A stretch of 10,032 nucleotides of DNA from Escherichia coli. GTDB lineage: Bacteria; Pseudomonadota; Gammaproteobacteria; Enterobacterales; Enterobacteriaceae. The notes under the pieces were generated by a model. It did no database searches. It worked only from the letters and a program-made list of their open reading frames with translations, and was not told where the DNA came from. The stretch lies in NCBI RefSeq assembly GCF_036507355.1, contig NZ_AP027880.1; one strand, written 5' to 3'. Numbering within the stretch: position 1 is the first letter of the stretch; each line of letters opens with the position of its first letter. Both the position numbers and the translations under genes were made by a program. This document shows, piece after piece, positions 2,098 to 6,986 of the stretch.

Positions 2098-2414
2098 TTT
2101 TCCACAGGTTGTGGCGGCCAATTACAGGTTTAGATTTATAGGATTCTTTTTTTAAAGGCTTAACCTATCGGTTTAGGGGGGGTCCGATTTAACGGGAAAA
2201 AGGGGGTCCGATTTAACGTGGATAAGTACCCTTGGGGGGGTCCGATTTATCGAGGTGGGGGGGTCCGATTTAACGTGGATAAGTGGCGCTATCGACAGGG
2301 TTGTGCACCGTTTTGGTCCCGCTGGGGTTTTCGGACACTTCCAGAGACATAAAACCCCGGAGATTCAATGCGTTGCACACGAATCGCCGGGGTCTAGGGG
2401 GGGCCGATCTAACG
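2098..2414. other. oriV of the RepA replicon: DnaA-box-like site, AT-rich region, four direct iterons plus one degenerate spaced iteron.
   Basis: TTTTCCACA at 2098..2106 (one mismatch to TTATCCACA). AT-rich 2120..2175 (ATTACAGGTTTAGATTTATAGGATTCTTTTTTTAAAGG...). Iterons follow (next feature), with a degenerate GGGGGGGCCGATCTAACG at 2397..2414. The region lies immediately downstream of repA. Confidence 0.75.
2176..2284 (+). repeat. Four direct iterons, consensus GGGGGGTCCGATTTAACG. Iterons 2 and 4 are extended by GTGGATAAGT, the complement of a DnaA box.
   Basis: Copies at 2176..2194, 2202..2220, 2234..2252 (TTATCG variant) and 2257..2277. The TCCGATTTA cores at 2183, 2207, 2241 and 2264 are spaced 24, 34 and 23 bp. 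ACTTATCCACG is on the minus strand at 2217..2227 and 2274..2284. Confidence 0.85.
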
Positions 2415-2446
2415 ACACGTTTGTCGGACACTTCAAGGGGTTAGCG

Positions 2447-3442
2447 TTACTCGGTCGGACCGCCCTTGTAAGAGATCGGCGGCGGGGAACCGAGCAGCAG
2501 GACGCCGCCCGTGACCGGCTTCACCTTGGCCTGCGGATAGACGGCCAGAACCTTCTTGAGGGCCGGCACAAACTTCTTCTTGAAGTCCTTGTCAGCATCC
2601 TTGCCGGTGTACTCCTGCGCGAACTGCTCGCGCAGAGACTTCCAGTGCAAAGTGACGCCGCGTCCCTCGATGCGATGCAGCCGGTGGGCCAGCCAAGCGT
2701 AGACATCGAGCGCCAGCGCCGAACCTTTCAGGGCCATCAGGGCGCGGTTGTCGAGCGGTACGGCGCTTTGCATCAGTGACGTGAAATAGCCCTCGGACAA
2801 CACCATCGTGCCCGGCCATAGCGCCCGCTGCTTGGTGTCGCGGTTCGCCATCCATGCGTCGAACTGCTCGACCGGCTGTCCATTGAAGGTGCGGCCCTTG
2901 AAGCCAAGTTGCAGACGGCAGGCGGCCAGCGCGTGCATCTGCTTGCGCAGGGTCGCATAGCGCGCCCCTTGGTCGTCCAAGCCCATCAGGCTAAGGAACT
3001 CGGCCGCGCTATCACCGATCTTGATTTCGCGCTCCTTGTTGCGCACGGCAAAGGTGGACACCCACGCCAGCGCCAGCCGGGGCATGACGCCATAGGGGAT
3101 CGGTTGCAGCACCGGCCCGTTGCCTTCGTCCAGATAACCGGCCTGCACGTTCACCCACGCGGCCCCGGACTGGCGCATGAACTCGCGCCCCTCGACCTTG
3201 GCGCGGGGCAAGCCGACCTGACAAAGCACGGCGTGAGTAAACGCCATGTCCTCGCCGCTCGGCGGGTTCGTGGCGATTTCGGCGGCCGCGTCGATCAGGT
3301 TTATCTTTTGGCGACTGATGAATGACAGGCTCTTATTGCTCTGCCCTTTAGATGCCGTAGCGTCGGCCGCCCGCTTAACCTCGCGCGGCACAATGTTGCC
3401 AAGCAGCGAACCGATGGGCTGGGGGCCGTTAGATTTGCTCAT
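2447..3442 (-). CDS. repA: Plasmid replication initiator RepA (replication initiator protein A / RPA family, pVS1-RepA-like class).
   Basis: 331-aa ORF. Motifs FTHAVLCQVGLPR...FMRQSG, PYGVMPRLALAWVST and a C-terminal winged-helix-like region are typical of this initiator family. GGAGA lies 8 nt upstream of the ATG (3442). It sits adjacent to the iterons and downstream of parA/parG. Confidence 0.8.
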   Translation of the reverse strand: MSKSNGPQPIGSLLGNIVPREVKRAADATASKGQSNKSLSFISRQKINLIDAAAEIATNPPSGEDMAFTHAVLCQVGLPRAKVEGREFMRQSGAAWVNVQAGYLDEGNGPVLQPIPYGVMPRLALAWVSTFAVRNKEREIKIGDSAAEFLSLMGLDDQGARYATLRKQMHALAACRLQLGFKGRTFNGQPVEQFDAWMANRDTKQRALWPGTMVLSEGYFTSLMQSAVPLDNRALMALKGSALALDVYAWLAHRLHRIEGRGVTLHWKSLREQFAQEYTGKDADKDFKKKFVPALKKVLAVYPQAKVKPVTGGVLLLGSPPPISYKGGPTE

Positions 3443-3469
3443 AAGGCGATCTCCACCGGCATGGCCGGG

Positions 3470-3727
3470 CTAGTTATTGTGGCGCTGCTCGTATTCATCG
3501 AAGGCCAGCCGCAACAGCTCGTTTAGCTTGAGGTCGTGGGCCGCTGCGAACATGCGGAAACGTCGACGCAGCTCGGCCGACACGCGGAAATTGAGCGGCA
3601 CATTGTTCGCCGAGGCCTCGGCCTCGGCCTTCACCTTGGGGGTGCAGGTCGGCATGTCGGCAACCGGCGCGGCGCTGCCCTTCGTGGCAACAAGGCCGGT
3701 CAAATCAGCGGGCTTCTTGGTAGCCAT
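3470..3727 (-). CDS. Small ribbon-helix-helix partition / centromere-binding protein (ParG-like).
   Basis: 85 aa with a disordered N-terminus, then NFRVSAELRRRFRMFAAAHDLKLNELLRLAFDEYEQ (RHH fold pattern). Its start is 1 nt after the parA stop (TAA-t-ATG), the arrangement typical of a type Ib par operon. Confidence 0.7.
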   Translation of the reverse strand: MATKKPADLTGLVATKGSAAPVADMPTCTPKVKAEAEASANNVPLNFRVSAELRRRFRMFAAAHDLKLNELLRLAFDEYEQRHNN

Positions 3728-3728
3728 A

Positions 3729-4379
3729 TTAAACGGTTTCCTTCTTTTTGGTTATCTTCTTAGCGTTCATGCGTTCTTGCACGAAAGCTAAAAGCTGGGA
3801 GATTTCCTCGGCGCTGCGGCTCTTGGGGTCGCTCTCGCCTACGGTGCGGCCGTCCACCATCGAGGCGGCATAGTCCACGCGGTCATGCACGATGGCTGGG
3901 GCTACAGCCCCATGCGCGGACAAGGCGGCCACGGCCTGAACGGTAAGCCGCGCGGTCGGCTTGGCCTGCGTCACGGCGAAGGCGAAAGGCCGGCCGGTTT
4001 CCTGCGCAATGTCCACGGTGCTGCCTACGGCCCGCAGGTCGTGCGGGCTGGGCCGGGTCGGGATCAACACAAGGTCGGCCAGCTTCACCACGTCGCGGAT
4101 AGCCTCGGTGATGGCCGGCGGGGTGTCGATCACGGCCAGCTTGAAACCAGCCTCGGCCAGCGCCCGCAGCTTGGCGGGCAGCTCGGCCAGCGAGGCGGCG
4201 GCCAGTGCCGGGGTGTCGTCCTCGCGGGAGTTCCACCACGCCGAAAGTGACCCTTGCGGGTCAGTGTCGAGCAGGACCGCCGGGCCGGCTCCTGCCTGTT
4301 CGGCGGCAACCGCAAGGTGCGCCGCTAGGGTGGTTTTCCCGGCTCCCCCCTTCTGGCTTGCTAGAACAAGGATTTTCAC
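3729..4379 (-). CDS. parA: ParA-family partition ATPase (small type Ib).
   Basis: 216 aa, GTG start. Deviant Walker A in MKILVLASQKGGAGKTTLAAHLA; also DTDPQGS and VIDTPP motifs. Confidence 0.9.
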   Translation of the reverse strand: MKILVLASQKGGAGKTTLAAHLAVAAEQAGAGPAVLLDTDPQGSLSAWWNSREDDTPALAAASLAELPAKLRALAEAGFKLAVIDTPPAITEAIRDVVKLADLVLIPTRPSPHDLRAVGSTVDIAQETGRPFAFAVTQAKPTARLTVQAVAALSAHGAVAPAIVHDRVDYAASMVDGRTVGESDPKSRSAEEISQLLAFVQERMNAKKITKKKETV

Positions 4380-5678: not shown

Positions 5679-5705
5679 GCGAGGCCAGCGGCCAATAGGC
5701 GAAAG

Positions 5706-5734
5706 GTCGGCCGGCTCTGCCGGCCGGCTTTTTT
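5706..5734 (+). terminator. Rho-independent terminator on the + strand with no + strand gene upstream of it (orphan).
   Basis: Stem CGGCCGG (5708..5714) pairs with CCGGCCG (5720..5726), loop CTCTG, closing G5706-C5728, then a T6 run at 5729..5734. Confidence 0.65.
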
Positions 5735-6088
5735 CATGGAATCGGATCCCGGTCGCCGGCCGGGGATTCCTTCAACGTGTAATCGGTCACGCTAGAAAGC
5801 CATAGGACGCGCTAGGAGCGCCGCACCGGCCGGGCCGCTACCTTCCCCCTCCCCTGCCCTAAAGAACGCCGCCACGGGCTGCCAGCGCAGCCGTAGGCGT
5901 ATCAGATTACACGTGCCCCCCGGCCTCTTTTGGTGCTTTCCACCTATCAGCCCGCAACCAGGTCAAAGGAGATCCACGACACTGGCCGCCAGCTCTCTTC
6001 CCTGCCGAGCCTGCCGGCCGGTAGGCCGGCCCATCGCCGGCGCAGCCGGCGCTACAAAACGCTTCGGCCGCTTGCGGCCGTCCGATTA

Positions 6089-6143
6089 GCCGGAGGGGGA
6101 GCCGCCGCCGCAGGCGGTGGGGGAACCCCGCAGGGGTGCCCCA
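6089..6143. repeat. Copy 2 of the 55-bp GC-rich double-hairpin element, just upstream of the Rep_3 start.
   Basis: 55/55 identical to 2024..2078. The flanks are also related but with indels (CAAAACGC...CCGATT.GCC on the left of both copies). Confidence 0.9.
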
Positions 6144-6188
6144 AGGGGGGCGACGTCGCGGAGGGCCGCAGGCCCGGAGGTTGTCAGG

Positions 6189-6986
6189 ATGGCAGGGACG
6201 AAGCGGGAGCAAATGGCCCTGGCGCACAAGGCGCAGGGCTACGACGTGGCCGACGTGGAGCGGCCAGCGAGGGAACGGTGGGTGACGATGAGCAATGCGC
6301 TCACGCGGGCAGGCCACGGCCTGACGCTGGCCGAGAAACGCATCGTGGCCGCTGCGGTGTCCAAGCTGGGCAGCCGCCGCGTGCTCAAGCCCGGCGAGGT
6401 GCCGCGCACCAAGATCACCGCTGCCGAATATGCCGAGACCTTCGAGGTCGATATGAACACGGCCTATGACCAGCTCCAGGGCGCGGCCAAGCAGCTCTAC
6501 AACCGCTCGATCACGTTCTACGAGCCAGCCCACAAGCGCAACGGCAAGCCGCTGCCGCCGACGCGGGTGCAAATGCGCTGGGTGGGGTCGGTGAAGTACC
6601 AGGACGGCGAGGGCTGGGTCGAGCTGGCGTGGTGGCCGGATCTGCTGCGCCACCTCACCGGCCTGCAACGGCAGTTCACGACCTACCAGCTCCAGCAGGC
6701 CAGCGCCCTGCGCTCGGGCTACTCCTGGAAGCTCCTGGAACTGCTGATGCGCTTCGAGTCGACCGGCTGGGCCGAATACACCATCGAGGACTTCAAAGCC
6801 TCGATGGACGCGCCACCGAGCCTCAGTGACTTCGGCCAAGTGAAGCGCCGGATCATCGATCCTGCGGTCAAGGAACTGACCGAGAAGGACGGCTGGCTGA
6901 TCCAGTGGCAGCCGATCAAGGCGGGCCGCAAGGTCAAGGCGCTGCGCTTCACCTTCATGCGCGATCCGCAGGGGCGGCTGCTGTAA
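6189..6986 (+). CDS. rep: Rep_3-family plasmid replication initiator (265 aa).
   Basis: Start chosen at ATG 6189, with GGAGG at 6176..6180; the track start at 6117 lies inside the duplicated 55-bp element. MSNALTRAGHGLTLAEKRIVAAAVSKL, YSWKLLELLMRF and the C-terminal IDPAVKELTEK...IKAGRKVKALRFTF are the classic tandem winged-helix signatures of Rep_3 initiators. Confidence 0.85.
   Translation: MAGTKREQMALAHKAQGYDVADVERPARERWVTMSNALTRAGHGLTLAEKRIVAAAVSKLGSRRVLKPGEVPRTKITAAEYAETFEVDMNTAYDQLQGAAKQLYNRSITFYEPAHKRNGKPLPPTRVQMRWVGSVKYQDGEGWVELAWWPDLLRHLTGLQRQFTTYQLQQASALRSGYSWKLLELLMRFESTGWAEYTIEDFKASMDAPPSLSDFGQVKRRIIDPAVKELTEKDGWLIQWQPIKAGRKVKALRFTFMRDPQGRLL

Follow-up and report, generated by a model that had tools for sequence, protein, structure and literature searches.

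Probable fusion of two replicons in a 10-kb Escherichia coli plasmid with a Rep_3 gene that lacks an origin, and a 56-bp element shared by unrelated plasmid origins

Two initiator genes and a repeated 56-bp element

The DNA analysed here, a 10,032-bp stretch of Escherichia coli (contig NZ_AP027880.1; hereafter the window), is essentially a whole circular plasmid and carries two initiator genes, rep3 and repA, together with two copies of a GC-rich repeat. Gene content was assigned with Pfam and NCBIfam, and loci fetched for comparison are denoted by L numbers. The plus-strand gene rep3 (6189-6986) encodes a Rep_3 initiator in which both winged-helix domains, WH1 and WH2, were matched (Rep3_N, PF01051, E = 4.3e-36; Rep3_C, PF21205, E = 2.6e-17), in agreement with a first-pass annotation of the sequence that had described the gene as intact and equipped with a good ribosome-binding site (RBS). 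The minus-strand gene repA (2447-3442) encodes a RepA_C-family initiator (PF04796, E = 8.6e-20). The same annotation had called this protein RPA-type, a label that does not hold: the RPA profile (PF10134) gave no match to the window RepA at E values up to 0.01 and RepA_C alone passed, whereas RPA proteins from other loci with the 56-bp element reached E values of 1e-64 to 1e-88 with that profile. The repeat, previously listed as a 55-bp element and here named E, is a 56-bp GC-rich direct repeat present as copy A (2023-2078) and copy B (6088-6143), both read on the plus strand and identical to each other.

The RepA_C initiator lies next to a complete set of origin parts. Its oriV (2098-2414, plus strand) comprises DnaA-like boxes, an AT-rich stretch (about 2120-2176) and iterons, the latter with the sequence GGGGGTCCGATTTAACG at 2178, 2202, 2236 and 2259 (span 2178-2275) and a fifth, degenerate copy at 2398-2414; these five matches in the plasmid compare with 0.04 expected. 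All three DnaA-box-like sites of the plasmid are found near repA (2098-2106, 2217-2225 and 2274-2282; one mismatch each), and the latter two are located on the minus strand and overlap RepA iterons. The arrangement of 4+1 iterons, DnaA boxes and an AT-rich stretch is as first described, and every sequence-testable feature of a RepA_C replicon (initiator, iterons, AT-rich region and DnaA boxes) is present.

The window RepA is 96.6% identical in amino acids to that of a Brucella daejeonensis contig (L025) and 76-81% identical to those of L021 and of the GES-5 MOBQ plasmid pG5A4Y413 (L006), and nucleotides 2024-3298 of the window are 88% identical to L025. These three loci and an Achromobacter xylosoxidans plasmid (CP014066.2; L039) share the order E, DnaA box, AT-rich stretch, iterons and repA 3' end. 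Moreover, L039, L006 and L025 contain G-rich iterons (GGGGGG.CGATT..ACG) like those of the window's RepA_C origin, and L039 has the synteny repA, hypothetical gene, parA and resolvase gene that is also found in the window. We presume that repA encodes the working initiator of the plasmid, whose replication, judged by these sequence features, most likely starts at the RepA_C iteron origin (2098-2414). While the RepA_C relatives L039, L006 and L025 carry one initiator, the window adds an apparently orphan Rep_3 gene and a second E.

rep3 has no origin beside it or elsewhere in the plasmid

A low-stringency search for direct repeats revealed no family of three or more copies in 5457-6188 or 6987-7078. 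The families found beside rep3 had two copies and were at chance level, among them the ACAGCGGGCA pair (within 7000-7014 and 7049-7063) that had been noticed near 6999 and 7050. GC content is at least 0.60 in all 200-bp windows around rep3. The repeat search and the GC profile uphold the earlier statement that neither iterons nor an AT-rich region can be recognized beside this gene. The cognate iterons CCTGACATTTTTCGGG, GTGCCTTTTTTCCGGT and GTCCCTTTTTTCGGGT had no match in the whole window at up to three mismatches, nor did any of these three variants occur in ten other fetched loci of the plasmid type (L001, L004 and L160-L167). There is no DnaA box near rep3, all DnaA-like boxes of the plasmid being located at 2098-2282. 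A relocated Rep_3 origin elsewhere in the plasmid, including a second AT-poorer region at 8700-9100, was considered and rejected, as there were no iteron matches and the CCTGAC half-site occurred at chance level (5 in the plasmid against 4.85 expected).

The control region of rep3 is similarly reduced. The hexamer GTCAGG at 6183-6188 (plus strand), which abuts the ATG, is the only remaining half-site of the Rep_3 operator/iteron motif CCTGAC (compare 3268-3418 of L022, a metagenome contig of the Rep_3/MOBQ type). The promoter-like TTGTGC-N17-TATACT of L022 and the CCTGAC/GTCAGG inverted repeats are absent at the window rep3, and a consensus scan found no sigma-70-like promoter in 5400-7150. 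A terminator-like hairpin lies upstream of the gene on the rep3 strand (5705-5735). Three of the four defining features of a Rep_3 replicon (iterons, AT-rich/DnaA region and operator/promoter) are thus missing. The ATG of rep3 follows the end of E copy B after 45 bp; of 17 E-linked Rep_3 genes, only that of the window begins within 49 nt of E, and the rest are at least 211 nt away.

Relatives of rep3 carry a complete origin after E

The window Rep_3 shares 98-99% of its amino acids with the initiators of L022, L107 and L156, 93% with L073, 92% with plasmid III of Paracoccus aminovorans JCM7685 (NZ_LN832561.1, 4,158 bp; L002) and 81% with a Candidatus Nitrotoga fabula plasmid (LS423453.1; L003). 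The differences from the L022 protein (98% identical) are G28R, D61G and the C-terminal tail; a dN/dS comparison with L022 is powerless because it rests on two amino acid replacements and an indel in that tail only. In all six relatives the region upstream of rep consists of E, an AT-rich stretch, three iterons spaced by about 21 bp, inverted operator repeats, the RBS and the ATG. The iterons read CCTGAC(A/T)TTTTTCGGG in L022, L073, L107 and L156, GTGCCTTTTTTCCGG in L002 and GTCCCTTTTTTCGGG in L003. A consensus DnaA box, TTATCCACA, follows E in L002 and L022, and a DnaA-box-like TTGCCCACA is found in L003; L022 also has the promoter-like TTGTGC-N17-TATACT before its rep RBS.

The same E is located upstream of rep in the Paracoccus plasmid, the Nitrotoga plasmid, L022 and the window, and the Paracoccus plasmid has the neighbours mobA, oriT and traD in common with the window. 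However, the complete origin that separates E from rep in L002, L003 and L022 is replaced by 45 bp in the window. From 6172 onward the window is 98.9% identical to L022, and positions 3142-3401 of L022 (260 bp, containing the whole origin and the promoter) have no counterpart in it. The comparison with single-replicon relatives that had been proposed at the outset therefore reveals a complete Rep_3 origin in the relatives and a loss of about 260 bp in the window.

Among Rep_3 proteins that are 80-98% identical, amino acid differences are concentrated where WH2 begins (about residues 208-222; window 6810-6854), with the variants AP-PSLSDFGQVKRRIID and ATEKQRENFANIRRKIIE. These changes parallel changes in the 5' half of the iterons of L022, L002 and L003, where CCTGAC, GTGCC or TGTCCC precedes TTTTTTCSGG. 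The segment is a candidate specificity determinant.

The E copies mark the junctions of a probable mosaic

The RepA_C block of the window is bracketed by the two identical E copies, in direct orientation and with parent-specific flanks. To the left of copy A lies a remnant of Rep_3/MOBQ-parent DNA (1708-1967, plus strand), composed of a traD-like open reading frame (ORF) with internal deletions (1708-1947) and a spacer. In three pieces it is 95-98% identical to the traD/hypothetical region of L002, L022 and L014, and the range is 93-98% with L035 included; its end (1909-1967) matches the DNA that precedes the 56-bp element in L035 and L014. To the right of copy A lies the RepA_C origin, and to the right of copy B lie rep3, mobA and oriT. 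Identical direct copies of E with parent-specific flanks are what two plasmids would be expected to leave on recombining at a sequence common to both. The idea of a fusion raised in the first-pass annotation was borne out: at the E copies, a Rep_3/MOBQ backbone is joined to a RepA_C-Par-Res block. The window has two initiator families at directly repeated sites, as in a bi-replicon cointegrate, but not two complete origins.

The second junction could be placed more closely. The GC-rich extension of E after copy B (6144-6180, plus strand), which includes the hairpin GGGCC-GCA-GGCCC, aligns with the sequence that follows E in L039: the first 28-36 bp after copy B (GGCGACGTCGCGGAGGGCCGCAGGCCCGGAGG) correspond to the GC-rich hairpin extension there. 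The switch to L022-like sequence falls within GCCCGGAGG (6172-6180), a 9-bp microhomology that overlaps the RBS region of rep3, which suggests that the Rep_3 origin was lost through a junction at this microhomology. A simple deletion from the end of E to the RBS in an L022-like parent was rejected, since it fails to give the 28-36 bp after copy B, which match the L039-type extension instead.

The following origin of the plasmid would account for these observations. One parent would have been a Rep_3/MOBQ plasmid like L002 or L022, with the order E, DnaA box, AT-rich stretch, three iterons, promoter/operator, rep3, mobA, oriT and traD; the other would have been a RepA_C plasmid like L025 or L039, with the order E, DnaA box, AT-rich stretch, iterons, repA, a ribbon-helix-helix (RHH) gene, parA and a resolvase gene. 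We infer that the two were joined by recombination at their common GC-rich E. The approximately 260 bp in which the relatives have the DnaA box, the AT-rich region, the three iterons and the promoter/operator of Rep_3 are absent, with the junction at GCCCGGAGG. As suggested by anatomy and homology, partition would be provided by ParA and the RHH protein, multimer resolution by the serine recombinase and mobilization by the MOBQ module. Under this scheme rep3 would be a silent, origin-less passenger that is beginning to decay and is still intact because the fusion is recent. In sum, the plasmid is very probably a mosaic fusion that replicates from the RepA_C origin and retains rep3 as an orphan remnant without an origin. 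Plasmid fusion of this sort is an ordinary kind of event.

Sister plasmids have lost a conserved part of rep3

The window matches the E. coli plasmid p2017.17.01CC_2 (NZ_AP027824.1, 10,103 bp; L001) over 95% of its length at 99.6% identity; a second sister record, AP027811.1 (L004), which is error-rich and derives from another isolate of the same study, also matches. The plasmid is carried by 1 of 5,426 complete E. coli genomes. Both sisters have an in-frame deletion of 81 bp in rep3 (window 6254-6334, plus strand), bounded by TGGCCGA as a short direct repeat. The protein thereby loses about residues 21-47 and with them ERWVTMSNALTRAGHGLTL, which lies where WH1 begins and is invariant among four aligned relatives; the window rep3 is the older, intact form. 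The loss of this invariant segment suggests that rep3 is dispensable, and probably it is. Since both sisters are on record as complete plasmids and are assigned to two different isolates of E. coli, maintenance of the backbone is probably independent of an intact Rep_3.

An identical 265-residue Rep_3 protein was present in 88 blocks of a public assembly collection, and eight fetched contigs were 99.7-100% identical to the window. The rep3-bearing contigs look like one recently spread plasmid, and conservation of the gene therefore says little about selection.

E adjoins initiators of at least five families

Copy A consists of GGAGGGGGAGCC, the hairpin CCGCC-GCA-GGCGG, a T, GGGGGAA, the hairpin CCCC-GCA-GGGG and TGCCCC. 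The general layout of E is GGAGGGGGAGCC, hairpin 1, T, GGGGGAA, CCCC-GNA-GGGG (hairpin 2) and TGCCC, the two halves representing a 24-nt internal repeat. In pBBR1 (L005; 1490-1543) the core lies upstream of rep; it also occurs in GES-5 MOBQ plasmids, and 32 contigs from genomes and at least 120 from metagenomes carry it. The element is conserved in L002-L039. The adjoining initiators belong to five families, namely RPA (23), Rep_3 (17), RepA_C (11), TrfA-like (11) and pBBR1 Rep (10), and in all five E is always separate from the iterons of the adjoining initiator. Its conservation is partly ascertained, the search patterns having fixed parts of the element, and each half was conserved when only the other half was specified.

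Hairpin 1 occurs with different stems (CGCCGC/GCGGTG, CGACGC/GCGTTG, CGCGCC/GGCGTG and CACCGC/GCGGTG). Across 29 distinct sequences all 290 cells were paired, three pairs showed compensatory changes and none of 500 shuffles reached the covariation score. Hairpin 2 is nearly invariant and is therefore uninformative on covariation. Folding of E and its flanks on both strands was no better than that of shuffled sequences (z-scores of -0.1 to -0.9); folding energy thus gives no support, and the hairpin claim rests on the covariation. GNA loops were present in 30 of 46 distinct hairpin-1 sequences and in about 35 of 46 hairpin-2 sequences, on one strand only. E therefore has the marks of a mini-hairpin origin element in its compensatory changes (in hairpin 1 only), its one-strand GNA triloops and its fixed orientation.

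The position of E relative to AT-rich DNA is strongly asymmetric. AT-rich DNA (at most 35% GC over 40 bp) was found within 200 bp downstream of E in 83 of 102 instances and upstream of it in 6 of 108, and a DnaA box lies within 130 bp downstream in 49 of 91 distinct cases. Among instances with at least 150 bp of downstream sequence, the lowest 40-bp GC content within 200 bp downstream has a median of 0.30; copy B shows the highest value of all (0.60) and is an outlier because no AT-rich DNA follows it. Among RPA origins, 17 of 22 have a (CG)4 or longer tract after E, as do 3 of 15 Rep_3 origins; no such tract occurred upstream of E. In L003, L013, L027, L032, L033, L035, L036, L168 and others, a tract of (CG)4-6 comes immediately after the AT-rich stretch, some 60-150 bp beyond E on its downstream side, which suggests that the exchangeable module may extend beyond E. 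In many plasmids the GC-rich DNA around E also contains arrays of further short hairpins with GAA, GTA or GCA triloops, such as CGCC-GAA-GGCG, GGGCC-GAA-GGCCC and CGCCC-GTA-GGGCG (L039 3550-3640; L002 1-500; L022 2600-3080).

E is not essential to every origin of this Rep_3 clade, a proposal that was rejected because pXF5823 (72% amino acid identity) and pZM1P1 (71%) lack a canonical E although both possess iterons and AT-rich DNA; at the position of E, pXF5823 shows a GTA-loop hairpin only. A full-text literature search for the core sequence of E returned no paper, and the literature on the pBBR1 oriV and on GC-rich regions contained mentions of GC-rich segments for single plasmids and no description of E. 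With some reserve, we propose that E is a previously uncharacterized, widely shared origin-flanking cassette made up of two G-rich units with GNA-triloop hairpins, in a fixed orientation and associated with at least five initiator families, an account that we regard as possible rather than probable. From its sequence and position, E could be a part of the origin that faces the host machinery, serving in leading-strand priming, as a helicase-loading signal or as an unwinding barrier. Being common to unrelated replicons, it could also be a crossover point for their fusion and swapping.

Other genes and repeats of the plasmid

Next to repA lie, on the minus strand, the genes of a partition pair, consisting of a ribbon-helix-helix protein (RHH_10; 3470-3727) and a ParA ATPase (CbiA/AAA_31/VirC1; 3729-4379). 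They are followed, on the same strand, by genes for a serine resolvase (Resolvase, HTH_7; about 4559-5191) and an EexN-family lipoprotein (NCBIfam Eex_IncN; 5202-5456). The resolvase and EexN genes are flanked by 54-bp inverted repeats (4473-4526 and 5576-5629; 98% complementary), each of which holds the internal palindrome TGGATTG(T/C)(G/A)CAATCCA; a partial third copy lies at 5891-5925. These repeats could be res sites or could delimit an invertible or mobile cassette.

Downstream of rep3, the MOBQ-type MobA/MobL relaxase gene (Pfam MobA_MobL; 7079-8599, minus strand) and the adjacent oriT/traD-promoter region (7079-8851 for both together) belong to the remainder of the Rep_3/MOBQ parent, and positions 7808-8851 are 86-88% identical in nucleotides to L002, L014 and L006. 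An autotransporter gene with 156-bp tandem repeats (9087-10032, continuing into 1-1245) and a gene for a ParE-like toxin (1511-1711) complete the plasmid. The 5' part of traD is present on either side of this segment (8776-8851 and 1708-1947), and, compared with L002 and L022, the second copy is missing internal pieces. The autotransporter/ParE segment thus appears to have been inserted into the traD of the MOBQ backbone.

The passenger of the autotransporter is built of the 156-bp (52-residue) tandem repeats, which extend over 9087-10032 and into 1-215. Across the fetched loci its product has 361-492 residues, some copies being cut at the end of a locus or contig, and this spread fits a variable number of repeats. 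The length difference between the window and NZ_AP027824.1 is located in the same repeat region. The G+C content of the plasmid (63-65%) is unusual for an E. coli plasmid. NZ_AP027824.1 is typed by MOB-suite in its PLSDB record as 'ColRNAI_rep_cluster_1998, non-mobilizable', at odds with its RepA_C and Rep_3 genes and its MobA/MobL relaxase; an Rfam search of the window detected no RNAI. With E values up to 1, that search of the whole window gave chance matches alone, none of them at the 56-bp element or near rep3.

Discussion

Several points weigh against an orphan rep3 on a fused plasmid. The expression of rep3 was judged by a consensus scan only, and a weak or non-sigma-70 promoter or read-through is possible. 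The gene is fully intact and widely recorded, which would also fit a retained function, and the 81-bp deletion, known from two records of one study, suggests dispensability without proving it. The E loop is GAA in the closest relatives of both parents and GCA in both window copies. The events may have been, among other options, a fusion at E followed by a deletion or a single illegitimate event at GCCCGGAGG. Finally, a metagenome contig (ENA ERZ28595384 scaffold_3557; L163) is the exact product of an E x E deletion, in which window position 2078 is joined to 6144 via a single E (L163 4700-5030). Its 5.97-kb unit contains rep3, mobA, the autotransporter and ParE genes, without the RepA_C block and without an origin. 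The contig, a concatemer, represents either a genuine recombinant or a collapse of the 56-bp repeat in a short-k-mer assembly; a circle of this kind, if real and self-replicating, would contradict the orphan status of rep3.

L163, which looks like a circle with rep3 and E but without the RepA_C module, speaks for the view that the plasmid is a working bi-replicon, in which Rep_3 would fire an unconventional origin (E copy B or another non-iteron site) and thereby extend the host range or escape incompatibility. An intact rep3 with a good RBS and an E only 45 bp upstream would suit such a role. Nevertheless, E is not specific to Rep_3, as it adjoins RepA_C, RPA, TrfA-like and pBBR1 Rep origins that each have their own iterons; copy B is followed by no AT-rich unwinding region (lowest downstream GC of 0.60), no Rep_3 iteron-like site exists anywhere in the plasmid, the sister plasmids lack the invariant Rep_3 segment, and repeat collapse in a short-k-mer assembly would explain L163, whose contig is a concatemer. 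We consider this view very unlikely. Among the alternatives put forward in the first-pass annotation, the loss of the Rep_3 origin is supported. A working bi-replicon is not, in view of the presence of one origin only and of the 81-bp deletion of the sisters, and an unconventional origin within the shared element is unlikely given the five initiator families that adjoin E and the lack of AT-rich DNA after copy B.

It is also unlikely, if somewhat less so, that rep3 is kept for an action in trans, either as a helper or an incompatibility weapon directed at a co-resident plasmid with CCTGACATTTTTCGGG iterons or as a transcriptional regulator. An intact protein that is 98% identical to the initiators of the free-living plasmids L022, L107 and L156 should recognize their iterons, and plasmids like these occur in the same kinds of metagenomes; yet no promoter was detected for rep3, the sisters have lost conserved Rep_3 residues in frame, and a recent origin of the fusion accounts for the intactness of the gene without selection. 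An assembly artefact, in which two plasmids with a common 56-bp element were misjoined into one contig, is extremely unlikely. The exact 56-bp repeat and the 156-bp tandem repeats do make the assembly graph ambiguous, and L163 demonstrates that alternative paths were assembled. However, the same architecture is present in NZ_AP027824.1, in AP027811.1 and in metagenome contigs or scaffolds of several ENA assemblies and one NCBI assembly. Moreover, no variant contig has the missing Rep_3 origin, so that misjoining would not explain its absence.

With rep3 regarded as an orphan, the apparent anomaly is resolved: the plasmid does not represent a case of iteron-less Rep_3 initiation but a recently fused mosaic caught between the fusion and the decay of its redundant replicon. 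A match to a rep gene does not mean a working replicon, which calls for caution in replicon typing. While an orphan rep3 is an ordinary outcome of plasmid fusion, E is the less ordinary result and worth following up, as a conserved non-coding module that many small broad-host-range plasmids share at their origins, that of the widely used pBBR1 vectors among them. If functional, E would give origin engineering a common handle and would explain mechanistically why recombination between unrelated replicons takes place at their origins.

Exchange of this kind has been described in Pseudomonas PFP plasmids, where replicons are viewed as chimeras assembled from exchangeable modules, with recombination at conserved non-coding segments. 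There, replicon families recombine with one another at a non-coding module that is kept upstream of rep genes lacking homology (Bardaji et al. 2017, PMC5304414). A comparable role would here be played by E with its DnaA box and AT-rich stretch. The shared module of the PFP plasmids is a putative replication control region, whereas E is a GC-rich hairpin element that borders the unwinding region, and the window differs further in that one of its two replicons has lost its origin.

GC-rich segments also adjoin the AT-rich region in broad-host-range origins such as those of RK2 and RSF1010. A similar arrangement, with a 29-bp GC-rich region beside a 27-bp AT-rich region, has been summarized for pMOL98 (PMC9499019). 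The GC-rich block of these three plasmids directly flanks the AT-rich unwinding region opposite the iterons and is like E in position and composition. Such segments have been described plasmid by plasmid, whereas E is one conserved sequence across initiator families. GNA triloops closed by C-G form a very stable DNA mini-hairpin that has been reported in two single-strand initiation signals, the complementary-strand origin of phage G4 and ssiA of RSF1010 (PMC13037366). Although E resembles neither of them in sequence, all three have tandem short G+C stems with GNA triloops, on one strand and at a replication origin.

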